In this document: one piece after another, positions 1,771-64,000 of the stretch | How the letters are laid out: every line of letters begins with the position of its first letter | Position numbering within the stretch: the first letter of the stretch is position 1 | Source: a virus | Reading direction: 5' to 3' (one strand) | IMG/VR virus record: IMGVR_UViG_3300025652_000002 | DNA length: 64,000 nt | Notes under the pieces: model-generated | What the model was told of the DNA's origin: nothing | The model's database searches: none | Seen by the model: the letters and a program-made list of their open reading frames with translations, nothing else | Position numbers and translations under genes: made by a program

Positions 1771-1805
1771 AACATTTTGGGACTAAAAAAAGTGAGAAAA
1801 ACAGG

Positions 1806-1821
1806 GCATCTATAATAGAAA
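1806..1821 (+). promoter_or_regulatory. candidate early promoter motif GCATCTATAATAGAAA (contains TATAAT)
   Basis: Exact 16-nt repeat also at 2731-2746, both immediately upstream of early genes. Confidence 0.3.
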
Positions 1822-2390: not shown

Positions 2391-2720
2391 ATGGAATACT
2401 TCTCCTACGACCCTATCCAAAAGGGTTACCCACAATACAGTATGATGTTTCACTTCGGGTTCGAGAGAGAGCGGATACTTCGTACTTTCGAAGAATACAA
2501 GGAAGATGTTCTTATCATTCTTCCTGAAGAAGACAAGGATGGAAGCTACTACCAAAGTAGGACTTCTACAGAACTCACCTTTGCTCAAAGGCGTTCTAGC
2601 ATTGTTGCCCTCTCTATGGGTGATGACTTCTTTCTTGTGAAGAACCGCTACAACGGAAAGCTTGGCCACATGGGCCGCGACGAACTAGAAGCTGTAGTAA
2701 AACTCCTCAGAGGAAACTGA
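2391..2720 (+). CDS. hypothetical protein
   Basis: ATG at 2391 preceded by aaggaaaag. Longer ORF from 2202 overlaps the upstream gene. Confidence 0.45.
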   Translation: MEYFSYDPIQKGYPQYSMMFHFGFERERILRTFEEYKEDVLIILPEEDKDGSYYQSRTSTELTFAQRRSSIVALSMGDDFFLVKNRYNGKLGHMGRDELEAVVKLLRGN

Positions 2721-2730
2721 GAAAGCTAGC

Positions 2731-2746
2731 GCATCTATAATAGAAA
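2731..2746 (+). promoter_or_regulatory. second copy of GCATCTATAATAGAAA motif
   Basis: Identical to 1806-1821. Lies 30 nt upstream of gene 2777. Confidence 0.3.
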
Positions 2747-8222: not shown

Positions 8223-8232
8223 ATAACCCTTG

Positions 8233-8280
8233 CCTCGCCCCTTCGGGGGCGGGGTTTCTCCTTAACCTTTTTTTTTTTTC
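8233..8280. terminator. rho-independent terminator
   Basis: cctcgcccc-ttcg-ggggcgggg hairpin followed by T12. Confidence 0.6.
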
Positions 8281-8296
8281 TTTTAGAAGGAGTAAG

Positions 8297-10489
8297 ATGA
8301 AAACAGCACTAGAACTGTTATGCGAAGACTTTGAATTTCGCCAACGATACCTGTTAGACAAAACGGGACAAAACGTGGACAAGCGCAAGAAATCTTGGAA
8401 GCTTTATGGTAAGGACGGTAAGGAAGCCATTGAGGCAACCTACGGACACATCCTTACCGCGTTAGAGAGTAACACCTCTCTGTCGGCCCTGACAGTAAAA
8501 ATGGGTGGAGTGATTAGTCGTCGTTTCAACTTGGACAGCGATGAGGTTGAGATGTCTCACCTCGGATGGTTCACCCTTGTCTCTTACTTTGAGATGGGCT
8601 ACCTTAAATACAAAGCAAAACACATAAAGAAGAGGAACGGAAAGAAGACAAAGTACCCAACCTACCACATCTATGTAACTAACACTGACGCAATTAACTC
8701 TCTCTTAGAGTCAGTAAATAGGGACAAAGTGGAACTATTTCCCTCGGCGGGACCTGTAGGTGATTGGGAAGAAGGGTTTCTTCACCCTATAACTAAGTAT
8801 CCTCTGATCAAGAACGCTTCAGAGGATACTATCCAAAAGGTAAAAAACCTTGAGTTGACCTACATTAAGGACACTCTCAACAAACTAAACAACACAGGCT
8901 GGCGTATTAACCAACCAGTATTCGAAGTGTTCAAGGCCAGTATGCACTGGGAAAAGACGCCTTTTAAGTTTTCAAGAGAGATCGATCCGGTAAAGAAAAC
9001 CTCTTTGCTAATTGAGATAAACGCTATCAAGGGGATAGCAGAAAGGCATAAAAATAACACATTCTACCACCTATACAACTTGGACTTTCGAGGAAGAATC
9101 TACCCTAACACAGCTTTCCTTCACGAGCAGTCCTCTGATAATGCCAAGGGCTTGCTTCTGCTTGAGGACTCCGTGCCGCTTGGAGAAGAAGGATACTACT
9201 GGCTCTGTGTCCACGCAGCCAACGTCTGGGGAAACGATAAAGTAGACCTAGATGATCGTGTAAAGTGGGTTCAGGACAACATAGACGATATACTACGCTG
9301 GGGTGCTCTTCCACAAGAGTTCCGTGGCTGGATGGAGGCTGATAAGCCTTTCTCTTTCCTTGCTGCCTGTGTTGAGATCAACATGTTGGATAGTTGGGTA
9401 CAGTCAGGTAACAACCCTCACGACTTCCCAAGCAACCTACCTGTTTACATTGACGGGTCAAACAATGGTGTTCAACACCTTGTTGCTATGTCTAAGGATG
9501 AGACTATTGCACCTTTGGTCAACCTAACTCCCTCAAAACTACCGGGAGATGTCTATCTTTACATTGCTGAAGCCGCCATGGCTAAAGTCAATGAAATGGT
9601 AAAAGCTTTAGACGAGGACGAGGTTGACAAGTTTGAGGGTCTTTTCTCTAAGTACGTTAGTCTTTTAAGGGTAATAGAAGCTGCCCCAGACAACTCTGAG
9701 AAGAAGGCTTTAGCTTGGAAGGCTATGCTTGAGTACAAGAACCACAACCACACCTTAAGGGAGAAGCTTTTTCCCGTCTACTGGTCCAAGATCAAAGACA
9801 AAAAGGTTTGGCGTAAAATGCTCAAGAGAAACGTCATGACCCTCGGTTACGGGGGTACACGTCAAGGTATGGGTGAACAAGTTGTAGAAGACACTCGTGG
9901 GATGAGTGACTACCTTAGAGACAAGGAACCCAAGTGGGGCTACATGCTTGGTAGTATGGTCTTTGACCTCTGCTATGAAAAGCTTGAGGGTCCCGCAAGG
10001 ATGCTCCAAATGTTTCAAGAGCTAGCTGTTAGGGAGAATGACCTTAATAGGCACCTGACTTACACCCTCCCTATAACTGGGTTCCCTTTCCAACACAACT
10101 ACAGGAAACCCAAAAGCAGAGATGTAAGCTTCTACTACGGGGAAGAGCGTATCCGTTTGACACTAAGTATCTGGCAGGAGGCCACCTTAGACAAACAGAA
10201 GCAGAAGACAGGTACAGCACCAAACATTGTACACAGCTTTGATGCTGTTCACCTAGCGAGTGTCGTCCATGATGCTCTCTACGTAATCACAGTTGTCCAT
10301 GATTCTTTTGGGTGCCATGCGGGTAACATGGGACAACTTTTCTACCACGTTAGAGAGAAGTTTATCGATCTTTACGAGTTGGAACCTTTAGAATATGTAA
10401 TGGCACAGTTAGATGCCTTAGACCTTATACCAGAGAAAGGGACATTGGATGTCACAAGAGTTCGATCTTCAGAGTTTTCATTCGCTTGA
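8297..10489 (+). CDS. T7-like single-subunit DNA-dependent RNA polymerase
   Basis: 730 aa. Motif C VVHDSFGC. Ends FSFA like T7 RNAP (FAFA). Overall T7 RNAP-like sequence. Confidence 0.9.
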   Translation: MKTALELLCEDFEFRQRYLLDKTGQNVDKRKKSWKLYGKDGKEAIEATYGHILTALESNTSLSALTVKMGGVISRRFNLDSDEVEMSHLGWFTLVSYFEMGYLKYKAKHIKKRNGKKTKYPTYHIYVTNTDAINSLLESVNRDKVELFPSAGPVGDWEEGFLHPITKYPLIKNASEDTIQKVKNLELTYIKDTLNKLNNTGWRINQPVFEVFKASMHWEKTPFKFSREIDPVKKTSLLIEINAIKGIAERHKNNTFYHLYNLDFRGRIYPNTAFLHEQSSDNAKGLLLLEDSVPLGEEGYYWLCVHAANVWGNDKVDLDDRVKWVQDNIDDILRWGALPQEFRGWMEADKPFSFLAACVEINMLDSWVQSGNNPHDFPSNLPVYIDGSNNGVQHLVAMSKDETIAPLVNLTPSKLPGDVYLYIAEAAMAKVNEMVKALDEDEVDKFEGLFSKYVSLLRVIEAAPDNSEKKALAWKAMLEYKNHNHTLREKLFPVYWSKIKDKKVWRKMLKRNVMTLGYGGTRQGMGEQVVEDTRGMSDYLRDKEPKWGYMLGSMVFDLCYEKLEGPARMLQMFQELAVRENDLNRHLTYTLPITGFPFQHNYRKPKSRDVSFYYGEERIRLTLSIWQEATLDKQKQKTGTAPNIVHSFDAVHLASVVHDALYVITVVHDSFGCHAGNMGQLFYHVREKFIDLYELEPLEYVMAQLDALDLIPEKGTLDVTRVRSSEFSFA

Positions 10490-10712
10490 GGAAGATGACG
10501 TGTTAATCTTAGACCCGATCGGGCTAGGAAACTCCGGTGGAGAATTCCTTGTCCACGAGAAATACCAAGGGCTGAACTTAGGGTCTGTAATCACAGGCTA
10601 TTTTTACCCCTTTGAAACAGGAAACCAGTACAAAAGTACAAGCTATTATGGAGAGATTATGGAAGAAGATTGGTACAAGATCAAAGAAGTAGTCCACAAG
10701 GTAGGAGCATAA
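10449..10712 (+). CDS. hypothetical protein
   Basis: ATG start. 41-nt overlap with the RNAP 3' end. Confidence 0.4.
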   Translation: MSQEFDLQSFHSLEEDDVLILDPIGLGNSGGEFLVHEKYQGLNLGSVITGYFYPFETGNQYKSTSYYGEIMEEDWYKIKEVVHKVGA

Positions 10713-10931
10713 ATGCAGGCTCAAACTACGGATGAACTAATCAAATACATGAACGAGGTAAATCGGCCTGTGCTTGTAATCTCAAAACCAGATTACGACG
10801 CAGAGCCAGAATTTCTTAGCGTTGAGTCCTTCGACGCAGAAGAAGAAGCATTTCAAGTACTTAACCCCGCTACAGGAGAGTGGGGTGAGTGGTATGTAAA
10901 TGATAAGTATCTCTATGATATCATTGTGTAA
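10713..10931 (+). CDS. hypothetical protein
   Basis: ATG immediately after the upstream stop. Confidence 0.45.
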   Translation: MQAQTTDELIKYMNEVNRPVLVISKPDYDAEPEFLSVESFDAEEEAFQVLNPATGEWGEWYVNDKYLYDIIV

Positions 10932-10954
10932 AAAATACTGCCGCCTAATGACCA
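10931..10954 (+). promoter_or_regulatory. candidate phage-RNAP promoter AAAAATACTGCCGCCTAATGACCA
   Basis: One of four intergenic copies of a conserved ~24-nt motif. Upstream of the SSB gene. Confidence 0.5.
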
Positions 10955-11014
10955 AGGCCAGTTGCCGACGCGGTCAAACAACAACAAAAATGAAAACAAA
11001 AGGAAAGCAAATTT

Positions 11015-11680
11015 ATGGCTGTAATTGAAAACGTAGAACTGTGGTGGGTAAAGTGTGATCCAGAGGATCCAGTAAAGAACGATGATGATGACAAACCAGA
11101 CTACTGGGAAGTCCAAGTTCGTACCACTGACAAAGAAAAGGCTCTACACTGGAAGAAGAATAATGTTCGTTTCAAACCTCTGAAGCGTATTGTTCGTGAT
11201 GACAAGGGCGAAAAAGTCCTAGATGAAATGAATGAGCCAGTTCGAGAGAACGTTCTAGATGAGGATACAGGTCTGCCTTACTTCGCAGTCACTCTTCGTC
11301 GCAAAGTCACAAAGGCTAACGGTAAGGAAATGCCCCCTGTTAGTGTTCGTGGTGGTATGGATACTCTTGATCCTAACATTATCGGTAACAAAACTATCGG
11401 TAACGTAAGTATCTTTCAGTACGACTACGTTTATAAGGGCGAGGAAGGTATTGCTACAATGCTAAAGGGCATTCAGGCAGTAAAACTCGTCAAGTTCGAG
11501 AAGACAGGTGGTGACGATGAGTTTAAACCTGTTGAAATGGAAATCGTTGGGGGTGGTAATATTGATGATATCAATGAGACTCCTTCTGCAAAGACCCCTG
11601 TTAAAGGGAAGTCTAAAGCGAAAGCTAAAGAAGAAGACTTCGACGATGACAATATGGACGACGAAATCCCTTTTAACTAA
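11015..11680 (+). CDS. putative ssDNA-binding protein (T7 gp2.5-like)
   Basis: 221 aa. Acidic C-terminal tail EEDFDDDNMDDEIPFN with an aromatic near the end. Positioned between RNAP and DNAP. Confidence 0.45.
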   Translation: MAVIENVELWWVKCDPEDPVKNDDDDKPDYWEVQVRTTDKEKALHWKKNNVRFKPLKRIVRDDKGEKVLDEMNEPVRENVLDEDTGLPYFAVTLRRKVTKANGKEMPPVSVRGGMDTLDPNIIGNKTIGNVSIFQYDYVYKGEEGIATMLKGIQAVKLVKFEKTGGDDEFKPVEMEIVGGGNIDDINETPSAKTPVKGKSKAKAKEEDFDDDNMDDEIPFN

Positions 11681-11692
11681 GGGAACTTGTCC

Positions 11693-11815
11693 ATGAGCAC
11701 CATTGAAAAATGGCGGCAGGTTCCTGATCTACCTATAAAAGCTTCGTCTTGGGGTAGAATCTGGAAAGAACCAAAAGAAGGCGTACCTCTCCCAAACGGA
11801 GGGGTGCGTCAGTAA
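11693..11815 (+). pseudogene. possible remnant of an HNH homing endonuclease (NUMOD4-like N-terminus only)
   Basis: MSTIEKWRQVPDLPIKASSWGRIWK resembles the NUMOD4 motif. The frame stops after 40 codons, with a similar coding-like frame continuing downstream. Confidence 0.3.
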
Positions 11816-11891
11816 ACCACCCAGACTTTATTGAATACTGTAAAAGTCGAACTGGGGAGTATAGCCCTTACCGAAAAGGGAAAGCACTAAT

Positions 11892-11920
11892 GGAGAACCT
11901 GTAATGGGTTCTCCTTTTTT
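11892..11920. terminator. rho-independent terminator
   Basis: ggagaacc-tgtaatg-ggttctcc followed by tttttt. Confidence 0.6.
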
Positions 11921-11942
11921 ATCATTTTAGGAATGAACAAGA

Positions 11943-12536
11943 ATGTATAAGAACGACTTACCAAAAATCAAGAAGTTTGTGCTCGAAGAAGGCATCAGCG
12001 GTATGGACCGTGTTTTCTACTTTATGTTGGGTTCTATCCGCGTAAAGTTTTTGACCCTCCCTTCAGTAACAGACTCGATCGTTAAAGAAGGTGCCCTCTC
12101 GCGCCATATTTGGGGCAACAAGGCTACGGCCTACAAAGACTACAACCGCTTAGACAAGATCAAGCTGTTTGAAGACGTGTTTGACCCAGCAAAGAGCACC
12201 ATAGATCTATCTCGTGAGCTAACGGATATCAGGGGCATCGGAGTCACCAAGTCGTCGTTCTTTCTGCAACTCTTGGGCAGAGACACTGCTTGCTTAGACG
12301 TACATAACCTCAAGAAGTTAGGGTTCCACCACAAGAAGTTTGCCAAGAAAGATATTGAGACCGCCAAGCAATACCACAAGACTGTAAACGAAAAGGGTGC
12401 AGCTTTCTGGTGGGATAGCTGGTGTGGAACAATCTTTGACGGTTATTCTGAATACTTCGAAAGCCCCGAACAGATTTCTAACCTCCACCTTGAAATCATT
12501 TCAGGTCAGGTTACTGACAACTTTAAGAAAGTATAA
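11943..12536 (+). CDS. hypothetical protein with HhH-GPD-like (DNA glycosylase superfamily) motif
   Basis: LTDIRGIGVTKSSFFLQLLGRDTACLDVHNLKKLG resembles the helix-hairpin-helix + VDTHV element. Confidence 0.35.
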   Translation: MYKNDLPKIKKFVLEEGISGMDRVFYFMLGSIRVKFLTLPSVTDSIVKEGALSRHIWGNKATAYKDYNRLDKIKLFEDVFDPAKSTIDLSRELTDIRGIGVTKSSFFLQLLGRDTACLDVHNLKKLGFHHKKFAKKDIETAKQYHKTVNEKGAAFWWDSWCGTIFDGYSEYFESPEQISNLHLEIISGQVTDNFKKV

Positions 12537-13641: not shown

Positions 13642-14021
13642 AACAGTGTATCAACGAAGGTTGTGTTAACCCTGTTAAAAAGATATCCTTCTCAAAGTCT
13701 GGTTATGCAATAAAACACAACTTTTGTAACACTTGTATACAAACAAAGTCAAACTACGGCATAACTGTGCCTGAGAGAAATGCCCTTCTCGAAGAACAAT
13801 CAGGTACCTGTGCTTTGTGTGAAAAGGCCATAGAGTTCAAAGGTCAAACGAAAAAGGGTGACAGTAGTGAAGGTGTTGCGGTTGTTGACCACTGCCACGA
13901 CAAACAAGTTGTTAGAGGGATACTTTGTAGCAACTGTAACAGGGGTTTAGGTTTGTTTTATGAAAACAAAAACACACTTCTAAGAGCAATCAAATATTTG
14001 GAGAATACGGAAAATGACTAA
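13638..14021 (+). CDS. recombination endonuclease VII (T4 gp49-like)
   Basis: CALCEK...VVDHCHDKQVVRGILCSNCNRGLG matches the Endo VII Zn/H-N-H signature. Probable GTG start at 13638 overlapping the upstream TGA (the listed start at 13623 is TTG). Confidence 0.7.
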   Translation: MKQCINEGCVNPVKKISFSKSGYAIKHNFCNTCIQTKSNYGITVPERNALLEEQSGTCALCEKAIEFKGQTKKGDSSEGVAVVDHCHDKQVVRGILCSNCNRGLGLFYENKNTLLRAIKYLENTEND

Positions 14022-14466
14022 ATCTAAAGACCATGTGTATCTTTGCGGCCCGATGGAAGACGTATCAGTAGACCACATGACAAGCTGGCGGCGTCAGGCC
14101 TCTGAGCGATTTGATGCAGCAGGGATTGACAGCCTTGATCCAACGAGACGAGTATCCTTCCATGATCAACTTCAGGGTGTAGACCACCTACAAGAGGTTG
14201 TAAAGGGAATGAACATCTGCAAACGTATCTTCAAACAAGACCTTGAAGACATTGCCAACTCTAAGGTGATGCTTGTTGACGCTCGACGGTCGTCTGGCAA
14301 AGGAACCGGAACGGCTATGGAAGTCATGTTTGCTCACACAAAGAACAAGATCATTATCCTCTGGTGTGATGAAGATGATCACCCTCACCCGTTCTATGAG
14401 GCAATGTACTCAGAGAAACACTACAACCTTGAAGACGCTATTGAAGCTGTACTGGAGTACTTCTGA
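14014..14466 (+). CDS. nucleoside 2-deoxyribosyltransferase-like protein
   Basis: VYLCGPM near the N-terminus and GKGTGTAMEVMFA resemble PF05014-family motifs. Confidence 0.4.
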   Translation: MTKSKDHVYLCGPMEDVSVDHMTSWRRQASERFDAAGIDSLDPTRRVSFHDQLQGVDHLQEVVKGMNICKRIFKQDLEDIANSKVMLVDARRSSGKGTGTAMEVMFAHTKNKIIILWCDEDDHPHPFYEAMYSEKHYNLEDAIEAVLEYF

Positions 14467-19870: not shown

Positions 19871-19894
19871 AAAAATACTGCCGCCTAATGACCA
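19871..19894 (+). promoter_or_regulatory. candidate phage-RNAP promoter AAAAATACTGCCGCCTAATGACCA
   Basis: Second copy of the conserved motif. Upstream of the exonuclease operon. Confidence 0.5.
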
Positions 19895-33742: not shown

Positions 33743-33913
33743 ATGGCCTCCTTTCTTTGGGTTGCTGTCCTGTTTCCCTTGAAGGCGGCGGCCTTAGTAA
33801 TATCTATCGTTATTGCTGTATCCATACTAATTATTTTAATCGCAGAAACTAACTACGCTTTGAAGGAAAACAGCGTAGAGGACCCTGCAGAAGAAGAGGA
33901 AGAAGAACTATGA
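33743..33913 (+). CDS. small membrane protein with acidic tail
   Basis: The listed start at 33686 is TTG. ATG at 33743. Confidence 0.3.
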   Translation: MASFLWVAVLFPLKAAALVISIVIAVSILIILIAETNYALKENSVEDPAEEEEEEL

Positions 33914-35760: not shown

Positions 35761-35784
35761 AAAAATACTGCCGACTAATGAAGA
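35761..35784 (+). promoter_or_regulatory. candidate phage-RNAP promoter AAAAATACTGCCGACTAATGAAGA (late-type variant)
   Basis: Third copy of the conserved motif. Shares the downstream CTAATGAAGAAGGGGG with the copy at 58050. Confidence 0.5.
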
Positions 35785-38632: not shown

Positions 38633-39202
38633 ATGTCCATTATTGGAAGAGTAGGTAGAGCCGCTGTTAAGAGGTTTGGCCGAGGAGCCGCTAGAGGAGG
38701 TGCTATGAGCGCCGCCCAGAAACGAGCCTTGGCTAAAGCTGTTAAAGCTTCTGCCTTAGCCCGTACAAAGAACGCTGGAGCAACAGTTGCTAAAGGAGCC
38801 TCTCGACGGGTTGCTAAAAAGGCTGCTCGTGCCTCCGCTATTAAGAATACCGAATCCCTAGCTTTAAGACGAGTCACTAGGGGCTTCAAGATGAGTGGCC
38901 TTCGTCGTGTTGACAGTGCTCAGTTTAGCGGCACTACTGGGCGTGCTTTAAAGAAGGCTTCGTATAGTGCCCGTCTAGCTAGTTCTAGGGCACAGTATGT
39001 ACAATCCTCTGTTGCTAACAGGGTGGGTCAAAAGGCCCTTGGTGTTGGCGTCACTGGTAACGTTATGAGACGCCGCTACTCTGACCTCACTACAGGTGAG
39101 AATGTTCGTCGTAACATTTCACGGTATCTTAAAGTTGCTATCCCTGTAAACGCCACTGTAGGTACTGCCTACTACACGAATATGTCAAGAAACAAAATAT
39201 AA
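38633..39202 (+). CDS. highly basic Ala/Lys/Arg-rich protein (paralog 1)
   Basis: AAQKRALAKAVKASALARTKNAGATVAKGASRRVAKKAARASAI. Confidence 0.55.
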   Translation: MSIIGRVGRAAVKRFGRGAARGGAMSAAQKRALAKAVKASALARTKNAGATVAKGASRRVAKKAARASAIKNTESLALRRVTRGFKMSGLRRVDSAQFSGTTGRALKKASYSARLASSRAQYVQSSVANRVGQKALGVGVTGNVMRRRYSDLTTGENVRRNISRYLKVAIPVNATVGTAYYTNMSRNKI

Positions 39203-39213
39203 GGATACCCCCG

Positions 39214-39813
39214 ATGCTTAAAAGACTCATAGCCAAAAAGCTTGGCCGAAGAATTGGACGGAGTGCCGCTACTGGCGTCCGAAGTGCTGCCCAAAAACGG
39301 GCCTTGATGAAAGCTGTTAAGGCTTCTGCCTTGGCCCGCTCTAAGACCGTTGCTAGGTCTGGGGTAGGTCGTGTAGCCGCTGTTGGTGTTGCCGCCACTA
39401 CAGCTACCGTTGCTGTCAATGCTGCAACTCGACGTAAGGCAAACAACCCAAGAAACAAGAGTATGGCTGTGGCCCAACTTAACCGAGGCACTACCTTTGC
39501 AAGAGTTACTGCAAGAGGTCTCGGCGATGTTGCTAAGGCTAAGGTAGCGACTACTGTTGCTGTTGCACGAGGGGACTTGAACCCCGTTGTAGGCAACGCT
39601 ATGGTAGGGGCTGTTTCTCTTCGTGCCCTTGCGAGGGTCACTACTTCTAGTGCAGCAACCCGTGGTAACGTTAATCGGGCAAGAGCAAACAACGCTCGCA
39701 GTGGAGCTTCCCAAATGAAAGAGGGGCTTCAGGCCCTAGCACGGAACGCTGGCACTCTAGCAAGTTATTCTCGTGCCACTCGCCCTTTAACTAACTATCT
39801 CAACAATAAATGA
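39214..39813 (+). CDS. highly basic Ala/Lys/Arg-rich protein (paralog 2)
   Basis: AAQKRALMKAVKASALARSKTVARSGVGRVAAVGVAATTA. Same N-terminal architecture as 38633. Confidence 0.55.
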   Translation: MLKRLIAKKLGRRIGRSAATGVRSAAQKRALMKAVKASALARSKTVARSGVGRVAAVGVAATTATVAVNAATRRKANNPRNKSMAVAQLNRGTTFARVTARGLGDVAKAKVATTVAVARGDLNPVVGNAMVGAVSLRALARVTTSSAATRGNVNRARANNARSGASQMKEGLQALARNAGTLASYSRATRPLTNYLNNK

Positions 39814-58049: not shown

Positions 58050-58079
58050 AAAAATACTGCCGCCTAATGAAGAAGGGGG
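58050..58079 (+). promoter_or_regulatory. candidate phage-RNAP promoter AAAAATACTGCCGCCTAATGAAGAAGGGGG (late-type variant)
   Basis: Fourth copy of the motif. Upstream of the portal gene. Confidence 0.5.
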
Positions 58080-58179: not shown

Positions 58180-59751
58180 ATGGCTAAACTAACGAAGTCA
58201 CCAAAGGCCCTAAAAAGGTCCGTGGCAGACCCAACAGATAGTTATATCGCTATCAAGCCTCTTTGGAAACGAGCACGAGCAGTCCTTCAAGGTCAGGCTA
58301 TGGCTAAAGCCCACGATGTTTATGTTTCCGATTTTGAAACAAACCTACTGATTCCCTTCTCTAACAACATGAGCGATGCACAGTATTCCTTTTATAAGGC
58401 TGAGGCAGAACTTCCGGGGCTTACAGCACAATATTCTAAGGTTCTTATCAACGCGCTTCTACGAAAACGCTCTGTCCTAGAACTACCTGAGTCTATCCCA
58501 GCTGATGCTAAGGAGTGGATTGAGAGCGACTTCACCATTGAAGGTCAGTCACTTTTCAACTTCCTAGACAACGCTTTGTGGGAAGAACTACAAACCTCCC
58601 GCGCTTGGGTCTACGTGGACTATCCCTCTATTACAGAGGAAGACTGGACCGCTATGGATGCCGATCAACGGAAAGCCGTTGCCCCTTACCCCATCTTGGT
58701 TAAGGCTGAAAGCATTATTAACGTTCAAACAAACCTCCACCCTATTACCCGAACTAAAACTGTTACACGGTTCATTACACGGTATCTGACGGAGAAGTTT
58801 ACTGAAGCAAACCCTTGGCACGCAGAACACGTTGACACTGTGGTTGACCACTACCTTGACGAGTCCGGTTACCTAGTAATCAACTACTATGAAAGCCCAG
58901 ACTCAGCTAACACCATCACTATCACAAACGGGGAAGTTGCCCAAGAGTATAATGATACTGCCCAAGATTCAAACTTTGTTCTTGTAAATACGATTCGTCC
59001 AACAATGGCTGGGGAACCTATTAAACGTATTCCTGCTTGGCCCTTGAATGGTCAAATTGAACCAATGGAGCCTATTCTTATGCCCTTGGTTGATCGTGAG
59101 ATTGCTCTGTATAACAAGATTTCTCGTCGTAACCACCTGCTATACGGTGCCGCAACCTACACACCTATTGTCAAGTCTGACATGGGAGACGATGAGTTCC
59201 AAGAACTTGTTAACTCCGGTCTAGGTTCTTGGCTTCGTGTTCGTGTGGGCGAAGACATTACTGTTCTTGAAACTCCCACCGCAGCCCTCGCTGACATGGA
59301 TCGTGCTATCGAAGCCACCATTGAAGAAATGGCTAAAATGGGTATTCGTATGCTCACACCGGAGCCAGCTGCTTCAGGTGTCGCCCTAGAGATTCGAAAC
59401 GCTTCTCAGACAGCTCAGCTAGGAGCCTTGAATACTAAGGTGTCTAGTACCATGCAAGAGGTTATCGCCTTCATGGTTGACTGGCGTTATGGTATTGAGA
59501 TTGACAGCAGCGAGATTAGCTTCGAAATGTCTTCTGACTTCTCACCTATGGTTGGTGGAGAGGGGGCTATGCGCCTTGTTGGAGAATGGTACCAAACTGG
59601 TCTTATTCCACGGTCTGTTTTTGTCAACATCGCTAAGTACAACGACTTCTTACCCTCAGACTATGATGATGATAATGCAATTCAAGAAATCCAGACTGAT
59701 CCTTTAGCAGCGCAGGTTGCAGGGAACCAAGAGGTAGACCTCGAAGAGTAA
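58180..59751 (+). CDS. portal (head-to-tail connector) protein
   Basis: 523 aa. Size and loose similarity to T7 gp8. Followed by a MuF-domain gene, the canonical portal-MuF order. Confidence 0.5.
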   Translation: MAKLTKSPKALKRSVADPTDSYIAIKPLWKRARAVLQGQAMAKAHDVYVSDFETNLLIPFSNNMSDAQYSFYKAEAELPGLTAQYSKVLINALLRKRSVLELPESIPADAKEWIESDFTIEGQSLFNFLDNALWEELQTSRAWVYVDYPSITEEDWTAMDADQRKAVAPYPILVKAESIINVQTNLHPITRTKTVTRFITRYLTEKFTEANPWHAEHVDTVVDHYLDESGYLVINYYESPDSANTITITNGEVAQEYNDTAQDSNFVLVNTIRPTMAGEPIKRIPAWPLNGQIEPMEPILMPLVDREIALYNKISRRNHLLYGAATYTPIVKSDMGDDEFQELVNSGLGSWLRVRVGEDITVLETPTAALADMDRAIEATIEEMAKMGIRMLTPEPAASGVALEIRNASQTAQLGALNTKVSSTMQEVIAFMVDWRYGIEIDSSEISFEMSSDFSPMVGGEGAMRLVGEWYQTGLIPRSVFVNIAKYNDFLPSDYDDDNAIQEIQTDPLAAQVAGNQEVDLEE

Positions 59752-59896: not shown

Positions 59897-59968
59897 TCCT
59901 CCCTAGCTTAGCGGTAAAGCACCCGACTGTTAATCGGACGAGGCTTGGTTCGAGTCCAAGGGGAGGAG
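59897..59968 (+). tRNA. tRNA-Asn (GTT), CCA encoded
   Basis: Manual cloverleaf. Acceptor tcctccc/gggagga. Anticodon loop ctGTTaa. T-loop ttcgagt. Confidence 0.65.
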
Positions 59969-59973
59969 CCAAT

Positions 59974-60046
59974 CTTGGTGTAGCTCAGAGGGTAGAGTGG
60001 CTGCTTTGGAAGCAGAGAGTCGGAGGTTCGAGTCCTCCTACCGAGA
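59974..60046 (+). tRNA. tRNA-Pro (TGG), CCA encoded
   Basis: Manual cloverleaf. Anticodon loop ttTGGaa. T arm ggagg-ttcgagt-cctcc. Acceptor stem has two G-U pairs. Confidence 0.55.
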
Positions 60047-60051
60047 CCAAG

Positions 60052-60124
60052 GCCGTTGTAACTCAGTTGGTAGAGTGCCTGACTTGTAATCAGGATGTCC
60101 GGAGTTCGATCCTTCGCGGCGGCA
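60052..60124 (+). tRNA. tRNA-Thr (TGT), CCA encoded
   Basis: Manual cloverleaf. Anticodon stem cctga/tcagg with loop ctTGTaa. T-loop ttcgatc. Confidence 0.6.
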
Positions 60125-60130
60125 CCATAC

Positions 60131-60201
60131 AGGGGTATAGCTTAGTGGTAAAGCAGGGGTCTCCAAAACCCCGTACGGGAGTTCGATTCTCCCTACTTTT
60201 G
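60131..60201 (+). tRNA. tRNA-Trp (CCA), CCA encoded; G-U-rich acceptor stem
   Basis: Starts AGGGGTA like bacterial tRNA-Trp. Anticodon stem ggggt/acccc with loop ctCCAaa. T arm gggag-ttcgatt-ctccc. Acceptor 3' strand tactttt gives three G-U pairs. Confidence 0.45.
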
Positions 60202-60238
60202 CCAACAACCAGTCACTTACTACTCAGGAGAGTACAAG

Positions 60239-63200
60239 ATGAACGCTAATGATAAACTGTTTGATCGTATTGTTGACAATATGACAGACGTAAGACTCTA
60301 TGAAAATGGAGTGCAAGTTGAGAACGGGCGGATACTAAACCGTCACAGAAAGCGCCTTAGGTCGTTACTTTCTCAGAACATCAAAGCTGATGTGAAACCA
60401 GAGATTACTCGCTTTGGTAAGGAACTCCTTACTAACACTGAACGTAGTGTTCGAGAGTTTTCCACCTCACAGTTAGACTTTCATTCTGACAACCTTCATA
60501 AAGAAGTTACACGCTTCTATAGGGTTCAACGACCAAGGACTAAAGAACTCCTTGCAGAAATTACAGGACCTAGCATCAAAGGCCCTTCAACCCTCTCTCG
60601 GAACTTATCAAACATTTCTTCCGGAGAACTCGTAAGAATTCAAACAAAGGTCAGTCTCGGACTAGCTGAAGGTCTTTCTCAACAAAAGATCATCAACAAC
60701 GTCTTGAAGACTACCCGTCTAACAGAAATTCAGGCTAAGACCCTGACACGTACTTCTATTACCTCTACCCAGACAGCAGCCTTAAACAAGGTCATGGAGA
60801 ACAACGCCGACATTCTCGATGGTTACATGTTCACTGCTATTCTCGACTCAAGAACTAGTGCAATCTGTAGCTTCCACAACGGTAAAGTCTACAAGATTGA
60901 CGACATGTCCTATCGGCCTCCGCTGCACTGGAACTGTCGTTCTTCTATGGTTCCTGTCCTTAAGTCTAAGGAACAGTTAGCTGAAACGGAGTCGGCTCGT
61001 CTTAAAAGGAAAGAGGTAGCTAAGCTTGACGAAGGTCTTTTCAACGGAAAGCCCGCTCAAATCATGAACTTTGGGAACTGGCTACGACGTCAGACCTCAG
61101 ACATCCAAGAGAAACTCCTTGGCAGTGAAGACGCTGTTTCAATGTTTCGACAAGGAAAGCTTAAAGCAGAAGAATTCATTTCTCCTGTTGGCAAGGCCCT
61201 GAGTATTCAGGCACTCCGCCGCAGAGCCGCAGCTGCCACCGCTGTATTCCACCCTCGTCAGAGAAACGTGGTGTCTTCTATTGACATTCCTGCCCAAAGA
61301 CCTTCTACCCTTATTAATAACCCTGCCCATAAAGCGAGTTTACGCAACCTCTTTATTGATGATGCTGATAACTTCACTTCGACCTATGCCTTGACAGACT
61401 TCAAAGGTACGTCCTTGGTGGGTAAACAGGCCTCTCGTAGACGCGTGGGCAATCAGTTTGATGAACGTAACTTCTCCTCCGATCCTTTGACCGGAGAGAT
61501 TAGGAACAACAATCTTTATGACCCCGATTTTAACCTGTACCAAGAGCGTATTGACTTTATGCGTAACTCAAAGGACCTTACACCAGATCAAAAGAACTTC
61601 ATTGAAAGCACCGTAGCTGCTCTTGACGACAAGGTTTCTGTTAATCAACAAACAGTTGCAATAGAAAACTTGAGAGTCGTCTTCCAACGGTATAACAATA
61701 ACAAGGAGCCTTGGGGTGACTTTTCTGCTGTAGTCCGTGCTGAGAACAGGTTTGCTGTTCAGAACGTATCACGTCTACTTGACACCCGTTCACGAGAACG
61801 CTCCAAAATGTTTGTCAGCTACCTTTCTAAGGACACCCCACAGGTGCAAATCTTAGGTAAGTACTACAACCTTGAGGACCTTACAAAGGGCCAACTTGCT
61901 GACCAACGCTTCATTGACGCTTGGCGGCGTACACAAGGTGCTAGTCTTGCAAGAGGTGTCTACTTCAAAGGACGTGCTCCTCTGAGAACCTACTTTAACC
62001 GCTTCCTTACAACGGAAAAGCAGATAAAGAAGTTCAAGGAGGACCTCTTAAACAAGATCATTCCTTTACGGAAAGAGTACCTTGCTTTCAAGAAACTCTT
62101 TAATCGAGACCCTACAGACCGTTGGTGGACTAAACAGTTTGCCAAGCTAAGAGAGGCTCAACGTAAGATTCTGGACTATGAGTTCCTACAGTTTGATAAG
62201 AAGCCTACTTCCAAGATCATGGATGAAGAAGCCCTTAACTCCCTTACAAAGATTTTCAAGTTAGTCGCTTCAGGCCAATCAACAGACTATGATAGTCTCG
62301 CTATCGGTATTGGTAAGAAACTAGCAGAGGATATTGGTGACCTAGTTCCGGGTATGACACATACTTTAAAGGACTACCACGCTGAAGGTTCTAAAATCCT
62401 AGAGTACATGCGTGAGCAAGGAATGATCCGTATCAACTTCCGTGGTAAGACCCGTCGAGGTGTCTATGATGTGGACACAGGCCGCGCTTCAGGTGGTTGG
62501 GGTGATACTGTGAGCCGTGAGGTTCAGGTGATAGACAAGACCCTTTTGAAGCTACAGGAAGCAGAACGTAGGACTGTCATTGCTCGTCGTTTAGGCGTTG
62601 TCAGTGAGCGCGATCGTCTTTATGTCAAGGCAGGTAAGAAAACCTTCTTTGATGCTAGGGGTAATGACAGTGGAATCCCTATTATTTCTTCCAGCAAGTT
62701 TGCTGACTATGACCCTAAGCAAATTGACCGCGAAATGGCTCAGATGATGAACCACGTAATGGATGTTGAGTACTCTGTTGATAACGAGTTCTTTGACTTC
62801 ATGGATGACCTTGTTAGGTTCCGAGACCCTCGTGGTAACTCTAAGTACTATGACAGTATCAATGAGTTTCGGCATGAGATTCTACAACGTGGAGAGCAAG
62901 GTTACGGTATGATGGCTACGGCTAAGTACCATAGACAGCGCAGTGCTAACTTCCGTACACAGGTCTTTATTGACTCCCGTGGTCGGGTTTATCACCGTGG
63001 CTACCTTACTCCTACAGGCGGTGAGCTAGTGCGTCCCTTCCTCAACTCTGGAAGAGCCGTGGCTATGAACGCTAAGGCTTACCGTGAACTACGTATTCAG
63101 ATTGGTGCCCTTATTGGCTCAGGTACAGAGATTCTTTCTCAGGCTGGGCGGATTGACACCTTTAATCGTAAGCGTAAACAGTTACTTGAACTTGGTGGTC

Positions 63201-64000
63201 TGCTTCAAGCAAAGACCCAAAGAGACAGACGCATCCGTGAGTTTCTTGAACACCCTTTAGTGAGAGAACTCGAAGGTGCTGAAGTAGCAAAGCTTGCTCG
63301 TATGGCTTTAGAATTGAAACGCCTAGATGATTTCATGGGTGGAGACTACTCTGACCTTGCTAAACTCGCAGGGTTTAAGACTCGCCTAATGATTGAGAAT
63401 GACGCTTCCTCTAGTGGTGCTCAAATTATCGCCCTGTCTACAGGGGACCGCGCTATTGCTAACGTTTCTAACGTCCTTGCTACACGCCAAAAGAACAGAC
63501 TCTATGACCTCGTTGCTCAGGACACTATCAACGACCCTGAGTTTCTAAAGATTGCTGCTCTTCGTAACTCCGGCCTCGATTGGGAAGACCTTGCTAAGGC
63601 TGCTAAAGCCCAGAACATGGTTACCTTCTATGGTGCTGGTGAAGCAACCAAGACAGCAAACGTGGCTAACAAACTATCCAAGCTTCTTGACGAGAAGGGT
63701 TTCCTTACAATCACTAAGGCTACACTTAACGACAACACTCGCTTAATTGACAACCAAATCAAACTTGCTACGCGCTTAGGCGCTACAAGAACAGTAGATG
63801 ACTTGACTGCGTTCCGTAAGGAACTCATTGAGTTAGTAAACAATAGTGCCCCCGTAGGTAGACACCTACTAACGGAGGCTATGGACATTCACCCAGACGT
63901 AGGTGACTTTGTACAGAGTATGATGAACGCAAGACGTGGAATTGTAGGACCAAAAGACTTCGAGGCTGTGTCTCGTATTATGTCTTCTAACCTAGCTCAA
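60239..64000 (+). CDS. giant virion protein: N-terminal Mu-F/SPP1 gp7 head-morphogenesis domain fused to a T7/N4-like single-subunit RNA polymerase domain (3' end outside window)
   Basis: MuF motif ILDSRTSAICSFHNGKVYKIDDMSYRPPLHWNCRSS. ssRNAP signatures: FIDSRGRVYHRGYLTPTGGELVRPFL (T7 DWRGRVYAVSMFNPQG), motif A MIENDASSSGAQIIALS (T7 FDGSCSGIQHFSA), motif B QNMVTFYGAGEATK (T7 RSVMTLAYGSKE). No stop before the window end. Confidence 0.65.
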   Translation, partial: MNANDKLFDRIVDNMTDVRLYENGVQVENGRILNRHRKRLRSLLSQNIKADVKPEITRFGKELLTNTERSVREFSTSQLDFHSDNLHKEVTRFYRVQRPRTKELLAEITGPSIKGPSTLSRNLSNISSGELVRIQTKVSLGLAEGLSQQKIINNVLKTTRLTEIQAKTLTRTSITSTQTAALNKVMENNADILDGYMFTAILDSRTSAICSFHNGKVYKIDDMSYRPPLHWNCRSSMVPVLKSKEQLAETESARLKRKEVAKLDEGLFNGKPAQIMNFGNWLRRQTSDIQEKLLGSEDAVSMFRQGKLKAEEFISPVGKALSIQALRRRAAAATAVFHPRQRNVVSSIDIPAQRPSTLINNPAHKASLRNLFIDDADNFTSTYALTDFKGTSLVGKQASRRRVGNQFDERNFSSDPLTGEIRNNNLYDPDFNLYQERIDFMRNSKDLTPDQKNFIESTVAALDDKVSVNQQTVAIENLRVVFQRYNNNKEPWGDFSAVVRAENRFAVQNVSRLLDTRSRERSKMFVSYLSKDTPQVQILGKYYNLEDLTKGQLADQRFIDAWRRTQGASLARGVYFKGRAPLRTYFNRFLTTEKQIKKFKEDLLNKIIPLRKEYLAFKKLFNRDPTDRWWTKQFAKLREAQRKILDYEFLQFDKKPTSKIMDEEALNSLTKIFKLVASGQSTDYDSLAIGIGKKLAEDIGDLVPGMTHTLKDYHAEGSKILEYMREQGMIRINFRGKTRRGVYDVDTGRASGGWGDTVSREVQVIDKTLLKLQEAERRTVIARRLGVVSERDRLYVKAGKKTFFDARGNDSGIPIISSSKFADYDPKQIDREMAQMMNHVMDVEYSVDNEFFDFMDDLVRFRDPRGNSKYYDSINEFRHEILQRGEQGYGMMATAKYHRQRSANFRTQVFIDSRGRVYHRGYLTPTGGELVRPFLNSGRAVAMNAKAYRELRIQIGALIGSGTEILSQAGRIDTFNRKRKQLLELGGLLQAKTQRDRRIREFLEHPLVRELEGAEVAKLARMALELKRLDDFMGGDYSDLAKLAGFKTRLMIENDASSSGAQIIALSTGDRAIANVSNVLATRQKNRLYDLVAQDTINDPEFLKIAALRNSGLDWEDLAKAAKAQNMVTFYGAGEATKTANVANKLSKLLDEKGFLTITKATLNDNTRLIDNQIKLATRLGATRTVDDLTAFRKELIELVNNSAPVGRHLLTEAMDIHPDVGDFVQSMMNARRGIVGPKDFEAVSRIMSSNLAQ

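Follow-up and report, generated by a model that had tools for sequence, protein, structure and literature searches.

Does the gene that follows the portal gene in the IMG/VR virus record IMGVR_UViG_3300025652_000002 join a head-morphogenesis protein to an RNA polymerase (RNAP), and what might such a protein do for the phage? The stretch analyzed, hereafter the window, covers 64,000 nucleotides (nt). A preliminary description of it had proposed that the protein encoded at its end carries a Phage Mu-F / SPP1 gp7 signature followed by motifs of a T7-type single-subunit RNAP. Our analyses support this: the protein consists of a MuF domain and a single-subunit RNAP, and the combination is conserved across the phage group. 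The best explanation, which we regard as probable rather than secure, is that the packaged fusion protein transcribes the early genes and that a second, T7-like RNAP then takes over.

A MuF Domain Fused to a Single-Subunit RNA Polymerase

By translation, the plus-strand frame at 60239-64000 contains 1254 stop-free codons and is still open where the window ends; an AGGAG ribosome-binding site lies 6-7 nt 5' of its ATG. With an exact 45-nt probe taken from the window end, we retrieved the record IMGVR_UViG_3300006396_000175 (L003), which shows 0 mismatches to the last 3544 nt of the window and carries the open reading frame (ORF) 615 nt past the window end to a stop codon. The ORF, earlier described as at least 1254 amino acids (aa) long and open at the window end, is thereby extended to 1458 aa. 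Its parts are as follows.

60239..64000, continuing 615 nt outside the window, plus strand: MuF-RNAP fusion gene, open frame, 1458 aa with L003
60638..60949 (aa 134-237), plus strand: MuF / SPP1 gp7 head-morphogenesis domain, Pfam PF04233, holding LDSRT...PPLHWNCRS
60956..62230 (aa ~240-664), plus strand: family-specific, mostly alpha-helical middle region between MuF and polymerase
62231..64000 (aa ~665-1254; ends at aa 1458 outside the window), plus strand: single-subunit RNAP module of T7/mitochondrial type

The MuF signature reported near the N-terminus was found at aa 202-235, within a match to Pfam Phage_Mu_F (PF04233; aa 134-237, E=1.8e-14) that scored 54.8 bits against a cut-off of 29.6. 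A match to PHROG 241 "head morphogenesis" covered aa 20-333 (E=1.9e-44). The polymerase was less readily recognized. Of the two Pfam matches that the preliminary description had anticipated, PF04233 appeared at the N-terminus as expected, but RNA_pol (PF00940) stayed below threshold on the window-truncated protein (12.7 bits) and was marginal on the full-length one (22.5 bits, cut-off 22). We based the polymerase assignment on the match of the truncated protein to PHROG 414 "RNA polymerase" (aa 883-1153, E=1.2e-13), on the full-length Pfam score, and on the evidence from the fold.

For the more sensitive comparisons we used a family alignment of 29 homologues (A1), which is also the basis of all statements on invariance below. 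Aligned with hhalign to T7 RNAP, it matched residues 398-877 with a probability of 97.5% (E=7e-12). Used as a hidden Markov model (HMM) against the PDB sequences, it found T7 RNAP (2e-11), yeast mitochondrial RNAP (mtRNAP; 7e-6), human mtRNAP, and N4 RNAPII, and the N4 virion RNAP (vRNAP) was not among the matches. A phmmer search of the PDB sequences with the truncated protein gave no match, T7 RNAP being found by the family profile only.

The fold was assessed from an AlphaFold model of P0002, an 833-aa protein 68% identical to aa 627-1458 of the fusion protein (predicted local distance difference test [pLDDT] 82.8, predicted template modeling score [pTM] 0.76). The top Foldseek matches of the model were all full-length T7 RNAP (E=1e-20, TM score up to 0.60), with the mitochondrial RNAPs next. 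In a fold comparison, yeast mtRNAP reached a figure of 27.0, T7 RNAP 25.8 with 612 residues aligned, and human mtRNAP 24.7, against 18.7 for N4 mini-vRNAP, 18.6 for N4 RNAPII, and ~10 for family-A DNA polymerases; sequence identity to T7 RNAP was 14-17%. The fold matches indicate that the C-terminal ~830 aa correspond to a whole T7-type enzyme including its N-terminal domain. As judged from the model, the polymerase module is thus a complete enzyme of ~830 aa and more than the central catalytic region.

Catalytic Motifs

The following motifs of the polymerase lie within the window.

62966..63004 (aa 910-922), plus strand: DxRGR motif FIDSRGRVYHRGY with DSRGRVYHRGY, equivalent to T7 D421-R425
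63389..63439 (aa 1051-1067), plus strand: motif A MIENDASSSGAQIIALS with NDASSSGAQ, its catalytic Asp equivalent to T7 D537
63596..63643 (aa 1120-1135), plus strand: likely motif B / O-helix KAAKAQNMVTFYGAGE with NMVTFYGAGE, from spacing and invariance

The DxRGR motif was aligned to T7 NMDWRGRVYAV by hhalign and hmmsearch, and its D, R, and R are invariant in the 29 homologues. Motif A was aligned to T7 LAFDGSCSGIQHFSA by hhalign and HMMER, with D, A, S, S, and Q invariant. The segments that the two programs placed opposite each other in the fusion protein and T7 RNAP were IDSRGRVY/MDWRGRVY, ENDASSSGAQ/FDGSCSGIQ (D537), NRLYDLVA/QDIYGIVA, PWVTFDGK/HWVTPDGF at the start of the specificity loop, QRYRPK/QEYKKP, VNGNHSNDA/PNFVHSQDG (the pre-C HSxD), and TIHDAFF/LIHDSFG (H811-D812). 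The catalytic residues aligned in this way are invariant or nearly so across the homologues, and the site of the specificity-loop hairpin forms beta strands in the P0002 model. Motif C, which had been expected beyond the window end as HDSFG, is indeed there, 343-372 nt into the extension, and reads HDAFF instead (GTIHDAFFTN, aa 1369-1378).

Of the palm and fingers motifs named in the preliminary description, DxRGR and motif A thus align to T7, whereas motif B is recognized by its spacing and invariance and was not aligned by the profiles, because the distance from motif A to motif B differs. The segment KAQNMVTFYG has the K-x3-M-x3-Y-G spacing of T7 K631...Y639-G640, the family alignment shows no variation at its K, M, Y, G, and G, and in the P0002 model it is located at the end of a predicted helix; it is therefore likely to be motif B. 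Taken together, the motifs predict a catalytically intact polymerase.

Position in the Head Module

The fusion gene is preceded by the portal gene, from which it is separated by four tRNA genes.

58180..59751, plus strand: portal gene (PHROG 145 portal, E=7.2e-45; Pfam DUF4055)
59897..60204, plus strand: tRNA genes Asn-GTT, Pro-TGG, Thr-TGT, and Trp-CCA (ARAGORN; Rfam tRNA, 57-64 bits)

The head module has the order portal, tRNAs, MuF-RNAP, a 255-aa ORF, major head protein, and head-tail adaptor, and the same gene order is found in the cultured roseophage DSS3_VP1. The arrangement puts the fusion gene in the usual portal-MuF-scaffold-capsid position and bears out the portal-MuF placement proposed earlier. 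The 255-aa ORF 3' of the fusion gene had no match in Pfam or PHROG, and no prohead protease could be named. An Rfam scan of the window returned the four tRNAs only and no intron, the fusion gene of the window being intron-free, and none of 50,697 phage records matched the fusion region in a megablast search.

Conservation across the Phage Group

Two roseophages in culture, DSS3_VP1 and DSS3_PM1 of the Naomviridae, have orthologues of the fusion gene, with full-length tblastn matches at 59% identity; the DSS3_VP1 protein (QGH74596.1) is 1463 aa long and matches both Pfam MuF and RNA_pol (27.1 bits). The IMG/VR scan brought up 574 related stretches. Among the 33 loci with enough upstream DNA, 31 contain a single open frame of 1400-1590 aa in which motif C and the MuF signature are both present; the two exceptions are a locus with an interruption upstream and a locus that reaches its contig end. 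When 1.84 billion cluster representatives were searched, 98 clusters reached E<=1e-30. In the full-length cluster members (1400-2073 aa), the polymerase always stands behind ~650-750 aa of N-terminal sequence, and all six distant full-length members tested have an N-terminal Pfam MuF. No stand-alone version of this polymerase lineage was present among the full-length proteins in the best 150 of 1033 matches.

Among 185,579 bacterial and archaeal species, represented by one genome each, the family occurred in a single metagenome-assembled genome (MAG), assigned to a "Gammaproteobacteria bacterium", with matches on a 74-kb contig (L185; JAOUJT010000001.1, 74,179 nt) and a 3.2-kb contig. The larger contig is as long as an entire phage genome of this group and is probably a phage binned with the bacterial MAG. 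From the near-absence of the family in species genomes, the phage group appears to be lytic. The MAG match may also hint at a host.

The record from which P0002 stems, IMGVR_UViG_3300025853_012171 (L004), has a frame change at ~484-493, near aa 610, where the polymerase module adjoins the N-terminal part, and the module of 833 aa was therefore called as a protein of its own. Either an error of sequencing or a genuine split could account for the frame change.

Phages AR9 and PBS2 have uracil DNA. Uracil DNA has been reported also for the Naomviridae isolates DSS3_VP1 and DSS3_PM1 (PMC8323127), and in DSS3_VP1 a putative deaminase (066) and phosphatase (050) have been linked to it (Rihtman 2021, PMC8323127). 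With tblastn, neither of these proteins had a homologue in the window, and we dropped uracil DNA as the rationale for carrying a polymerase in the window phage. In its nucleotide-metabolism region, the window contains a nucleoside 2-deoxyribosyltransferase-like ORF at 14014-14466 (Pfam, E=3e-7).

Group I Introns at the Catalytic Codons

In many relatives, group I introns interrupt the fusion gene exactly in motifs B and C. Of 41 database proteins homologous to the N-terminal half, about 30 have lengths of 1129-1202 aa, and the five examined end after KAAKAQN in motif B. In one relative (L085; JGI 3300025655 Ga0208795_1000223), tblastn resolved three exons encoding aa 4-1127, 1133-1373, and 1374-1458, with three group I introns at 9377-12160 (Rfam 79.8, 64, and 88.7 bits). 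Motif B holds two of these in tandem, with a micro-exon of ~17 nt for VTFYG between them, and motif C is split by the third after HD and before AFF; HNH-type ORFs are located in or beside the introns. In EBPR siphovirus 1 (L002 9179-10127), the fusion gene is split into gp47, the HNH protein gp48, and gp49, with a subthreshold group I match (40.5 bits) at the junction, and tblastn places the split at motif B within one residue (window aa 1128|1129).

The use of motifs B and C as intron homing sites also suggests that the phages cannot do without these sequences. By truncating most of the database proteins, the introns also cause domain surveys to overlook the polymerase. GenBank, RefSeq, and JGI records label the gene only as "head morphogenesis" or "minor head protein", and the orthologues in DSS3_VP1 and DSS3_PM1 are annotated as "minor head protein-like protein" or "head morphogenesis". 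Matches to the polymerase domain, such as PF00940 flags, already sit uncommented in public annotation tables.

A Second Polymerase and Two Classes of Promoter-Like Motifs

The window also encodes a separate RNAP, as stated in the preliminary description, and contains two classes of recurrent motifs.

8297..10489, plus strand: conventional T7-like RNAP, 730 aa (Pfam RNA_pol, E=1.9e-74)
1793..1821, plus strand: early promoter-like motif, copy 1 (TGAGAAAAACAGGGCATCTATAATAGAAA), after a terminator-like hairpin at 1745-1764
2718..2746, plus strand: early promoter-like motif, copy 2
10931..10951, plus strand: class-2 21-mer
19871-19891, plus strand: class-2 21-mer
35761-35781, plus strand: class-2 21-mer
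58050..58070, plus strand: class-2 21-mer

The T7-like RNAP shares 46% identity with the protein annotated as RNA polymerase in DSS3_VP1. At 730 aa it is short, with an N-terminal domain reduced in comparison with T7. Directly 5' of its gene, at 8232-8297, there are a strong GC hairpin (GCCTCGCCCCTTCGGGGGCGGGGT) and a long T-run, which may form an attenuating terminator that separates the polymerase gene from the early genes.

The core of the early motif, TGAGAAA-N6-GCATCTATAATAGAAA, occurs twice in the window, and its copies are situated directly after a terminator-like hairpin closing the tail genes and before the first early ORFs. The whole motif extends over ~35 nt, with the forms aAAAAAgTGAGAAAA-N5-GCATCTATAAT and aAAAAAgTGAGAAAA-N5-GCATCTATAATGA, and is nearly invariant across the phage group; the consensus reaches past the bases used in the search (aAAAAAgTGAGAAAA.taa.GCATCTATAATGAta.AA). 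DSS3_VP1 has it at the syntenic place, and it recurs in 94 IMG/VR stretches (L089-L182), where 2-5 copies often stand in tandem 0.3-0.5 kb apart; in L088 it was observed at 1780-1822, 2227-2269, and 33794-33814. Homologues of the window's neighboring genes are encoded by 92 of the 94 stretches. Directly 3' of 57 of the 109 unique motif copies we found a covarying hairpin of 5-7 bp, against 2.4 expected by shuffling; it sits 3' of the TATAAT and is lacking from the two window copies. When the motif was read for elements of a sigma-70 promoter, neither a -35 hexamer at 17 nt nor a TG extension was found, and sigma-70-like sites were not enriched in the first 12 kb of the window (10 found, 13.4 expected).

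A free-standing HNH endonuclease ORF (1432-1740; PHROG 99, E=3e-29) lies between a tape-measure-like gene (16-1428) and the early region, and has homologues in 41 of the 94 early-motif loci.

The class-2 motif is a 21-mer (AAAAATACTGCCGCCTAATGA) with four plus-strand copies in the window, where 0.00 were expected. The first copy is just 3' of the T7-like RNAP gene and the last, followed by a GC hairpin, is just 5' of the portal and MuF-RNAP genes. At equivalent places, DSS3_VP1 has five copies of a different, SP6-like repeat, ATAGGGTGCGTTAAAG. The 21-mer is probably the promoter of the T7-like RNAP. The specificity loops of the two polymerases differ in the same manner as the motifs: between the window and DSS3_VP1, the loop region is 81% identical in the MuF-RNAPs and 49% identical in the T7-like RNAPs, with a largely different hairpin core. 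A conserved loop would go naturally with the conserved early motif, and a divergent loop with the divergent class-2 motif.

Elsewhere in the window, just 3' of the large terminase gene, the segments 38708-38777 and 39283-39352 form a 70-nt direct repeat (80% identity, 575 nt apart), the copies of which fall inside the neighboring, tandem-paralogue-like ORFs 38633-39202 and 39214-39813.

What the Fusion Protein May Do

In the explanation that we favor, the MuF-RNAP would be produced late, from the head-gene operon, and its MuF part would bring it into the procapsid at the portal, as in MuF proteins with other C-terminal cargo. It would leave the virion together with the DNA and, in the new cell, read the early region from the conserved ~35-nt promoter. 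The early genes would include that of the T7-like RNAP, which in turn would read the phage-specific class-2 promoters of the middle and late genes, among them the operon of the portal and the MuF-RNAP. Several points weigh against this explanation. The full 1458-aa protein barely passes the Pfam RNA_pol cut-off, and motif B was aligned to T7 by neither hhalign nor HMMER. The early motif contains a perfect TATAAT that could be read by host sigma-70 RNAP, and the match of loops to promoters compares two genomes only. Since the window has no homologues of the deoxyuridine pathway, a uracil-DNA rationale for carrying a polymerase cannot be generalized. A folded polymerase of ~95 kDa and an N-terminal part of 70 kDa would have to traverse the long siphovirus tail, presumably unfolded. 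Finally, packaging, ejection, enzymatic activity, and the assignment of polymerases to motifs are steps that we infer.

The perfect -10 hexamer, preceded by an A-tract, is also what recommends a different course of events, in which the fusion protein is packaged but host sigma-70 RNAP reads the early genes, the carried enzyme for example pulling the genome in or priming. Phage T7 offers a parallel, as its early genes use host RNAP and transcription by T7 RNAP helps genome internalization. We nevertheless think this unlikely. Some 30 positions outside the hexamer are nearly invariant among phages with proteins just 35-60% identical, the -35 hexamer at 17 nt, the TG extension, and an enrichment of sigma-70-like sites in the first 12 kb are all missing, and a conserved specificity loop requires a conserved promoter somewhere. 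A little less likely still, in our judgment, is that the protein is not ejected at all, its MuF part serving head assembly and its polymerase, possibly cleaved off, acting late in the cell in transcription, replication, or packaging. Such a role would agree with the location of the gene, as the late head operon to which it belongs follows a class-2 motif, and packaging is indeed only deduced. Yet the fusion is kept in every full-length member, very distant ones included, and no polymerase stands alone among the full-length proteins in the best 150 of 1033 matches. MuF is moreover a recurrent carrier of injected cargo (PMC5512222), the motifs of the T7-like RNAP already cover the late genes, and a late enzyme transcribing its own operon could not get started.

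The low identity to T7 RNAP (14-17%) would also suit a domain that has retained the polymerase fold and lost catalysis and that serves at the portal as a pilot or plug bound to DNA; for SPP1 gp7, DNA binding and an effect on ejection are cited in PMC5512222. We hold this to be improbable: both catalytic Asp residues, the Lys, Tyr, and Gly of motif B, the arginines of DxRGR, and the His preceding the motif C Asp are invariant or nearly so in the 29 homologues, and the homing introns target the same codons. That the long ORF is an assembly or frameshift artifact joining two genes is the least credible of these alternatives and can be considered very nearly negligible. It could appeal to the frame change in L004 near aa 610 and to the many database homologues of ~1140 or ~800 aa. 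Against it, two independent assemblies are identical over 3544 nt and the ORF is continuous in DSS3_VP1, DSS3_PM1, and 31 of the 33 IMG/VR loci. We rejected the artifact reading, as the short database proteins end at insertion sites of group I introns. The transcription of early genes by a packaged MuF-RNAP, followed by the T7-like RNAP, thus remains the explanation we prefer.

Comparison with Known Systems

The preliminary description had likened the fusion protein to the encapsidated vRNAP of N4-like phages. As a strategy the likeness stands; in sequence it does not, and the fold is closer to the T7 and mitochondrial RNAPs. The vRNAP of N4 (gp50, Schitoviridae) has no detectable sequence relation to the fusion protein (hhalign 0.4%; absent from the profile-search matches), and an origin from the N4 family was rejected on the 0.4% probability of the hhalign comparison with N4 mini-vRNAP. 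On these sequence comparisons, what is shared with N4 is strategy and not ancestry. N4 gp50 is a protein of ~3500 aa with N- and C-terminal ejection/encapsidation domains of its own and no MuF, whereas the fusion protein has 1458 aa, with MuF at the N-terminus and the polymerase at the extreme C-terminus. N4 is a podovirus with a dedicated ejectosome, unlike the long-tailed phages of the window's group, and its promoters are DNA hairpins on a single-stranded template, formed by a 3-nt loop on a stem of 5-7 bp. The candidate early promoter here is a long linear conserved sequence, although 57 of its 109 unique copies are followed by the covarying hairpin mentioned above.

With the T7 and mitochondrial RNAPs, the modeled module shares the fold over ~600 residues, comprising the N-terminal domain, thumb, palm, fingers, and specificity-loop hairpin. 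The DxRGR motif, motif A, the pre-C HSxD, the HD of motif C, and the C-terminal DIL segment all align. In contrast to T7 RNAP, the fused polymerase stands behind ~660 aa of head-protein sequence and is encoded in the head module, not among the early genes. It also has a shorter spacing from motif A to motif B, a stretch of ~150 aa after motif B, and the C-terminus WYGIGP in place of the T7 FAFA. The window's own T7-like RNAP is no closer to it: the hhalign probability between the two was only 78%, which indicates that the fusion did not arise by a recent duplication of the T7-like RNAP, and an internal duplication of that kind was rejected.

MuF has been described as a hub that occurs joined to numerous effector domains, which presumably are injected (PMC5512222). 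The MuF / SPP1 gp7 proteins and MuF-cargo fusions likewise have PF04233 at the N-terminus, follow the portal gene directly, and carry enzymatic cargo at the C-terminus. Cargos known so far comprise toxins as well as small effectors (among them RNases, ADP-ribosyltransferases, (p)ppApp synthetases, and phosphoribosyltransferases [PRTases]), mostly of temperate phages, while the cargo here is a transcription enzyme of ~830 aa in apparently lytic phages. MuF polymorphic toxins have a variable toxin C-terminus, an adjacent immunity gene, and a home in temperate phages; here, the cargo is a conserved polymerase, the next gene belongs to the head module, and the family is virtually absent from bacterial genomes. 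The crAss-like phages and the jumbo phages of the phiKZ/AR9 type follow the same strategy, a capsid-packed polymerase for host-independent early transcription, but with two-barrel, multisubunit-type virion RNAPs whose fold is unrelated to that of the right-hand T7-type enzyme.

Discussion

Virion RNAPs (N4, crAss-like, phiKZ/AR9) and MuF-cargo fusions (PMC5512222) were known before; the MuF-polymerase fusion appears to be new. In agreement with the preliminary description, whose author had not seen such a fusion described, our full-text literature searches found no report of a MuF-RNA polymerase fusion or of a polymerase as MuF cargo, with the reservation that their coverage is incomplete and absence is no proof. 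The description of DSS3_VP1 and DSS3_PM1 (Rihtman 2021, PMC8323127) makes no mention of an RNA polymerase, MuF, or virion proteins.

The most far-reaching form of the interpretation is that these phages represent an independent lineage of virion-delivered RNAP beside the N4-type and the two-barrel enzymes, with an enzyme of T7/mitochondrial type in long-tailed marine phages, the uracil-DNA Naomviridae included, that is tethered to the portal by its MuF domain, reads a nearly invariant ~35-nt early promoter, and is followed by a second, ordinary T7-like RNAP, no host polymerase being used. We put its chances as about even. The phage group is abundant in marine metagenomes, as the number of related IMG/VR stretches indicates. 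With DSS3_VP1 and DSS3_PM1 it has cultured members on a tractable host, Ruegeria pomeroyi, so that the independence from host RNAP is directly testable. The compact polymerase and its long conserved promoter, beside a second orthogonal pair, may also serve orthogonal expression. If the interpretation is true, the packaging of a polymerase would have arisen once again, from another branch of the single-subunit RNAPs and with another packaging handle, and the idea of MuF cargo would widen from toxins to a core information-processing enzyme.

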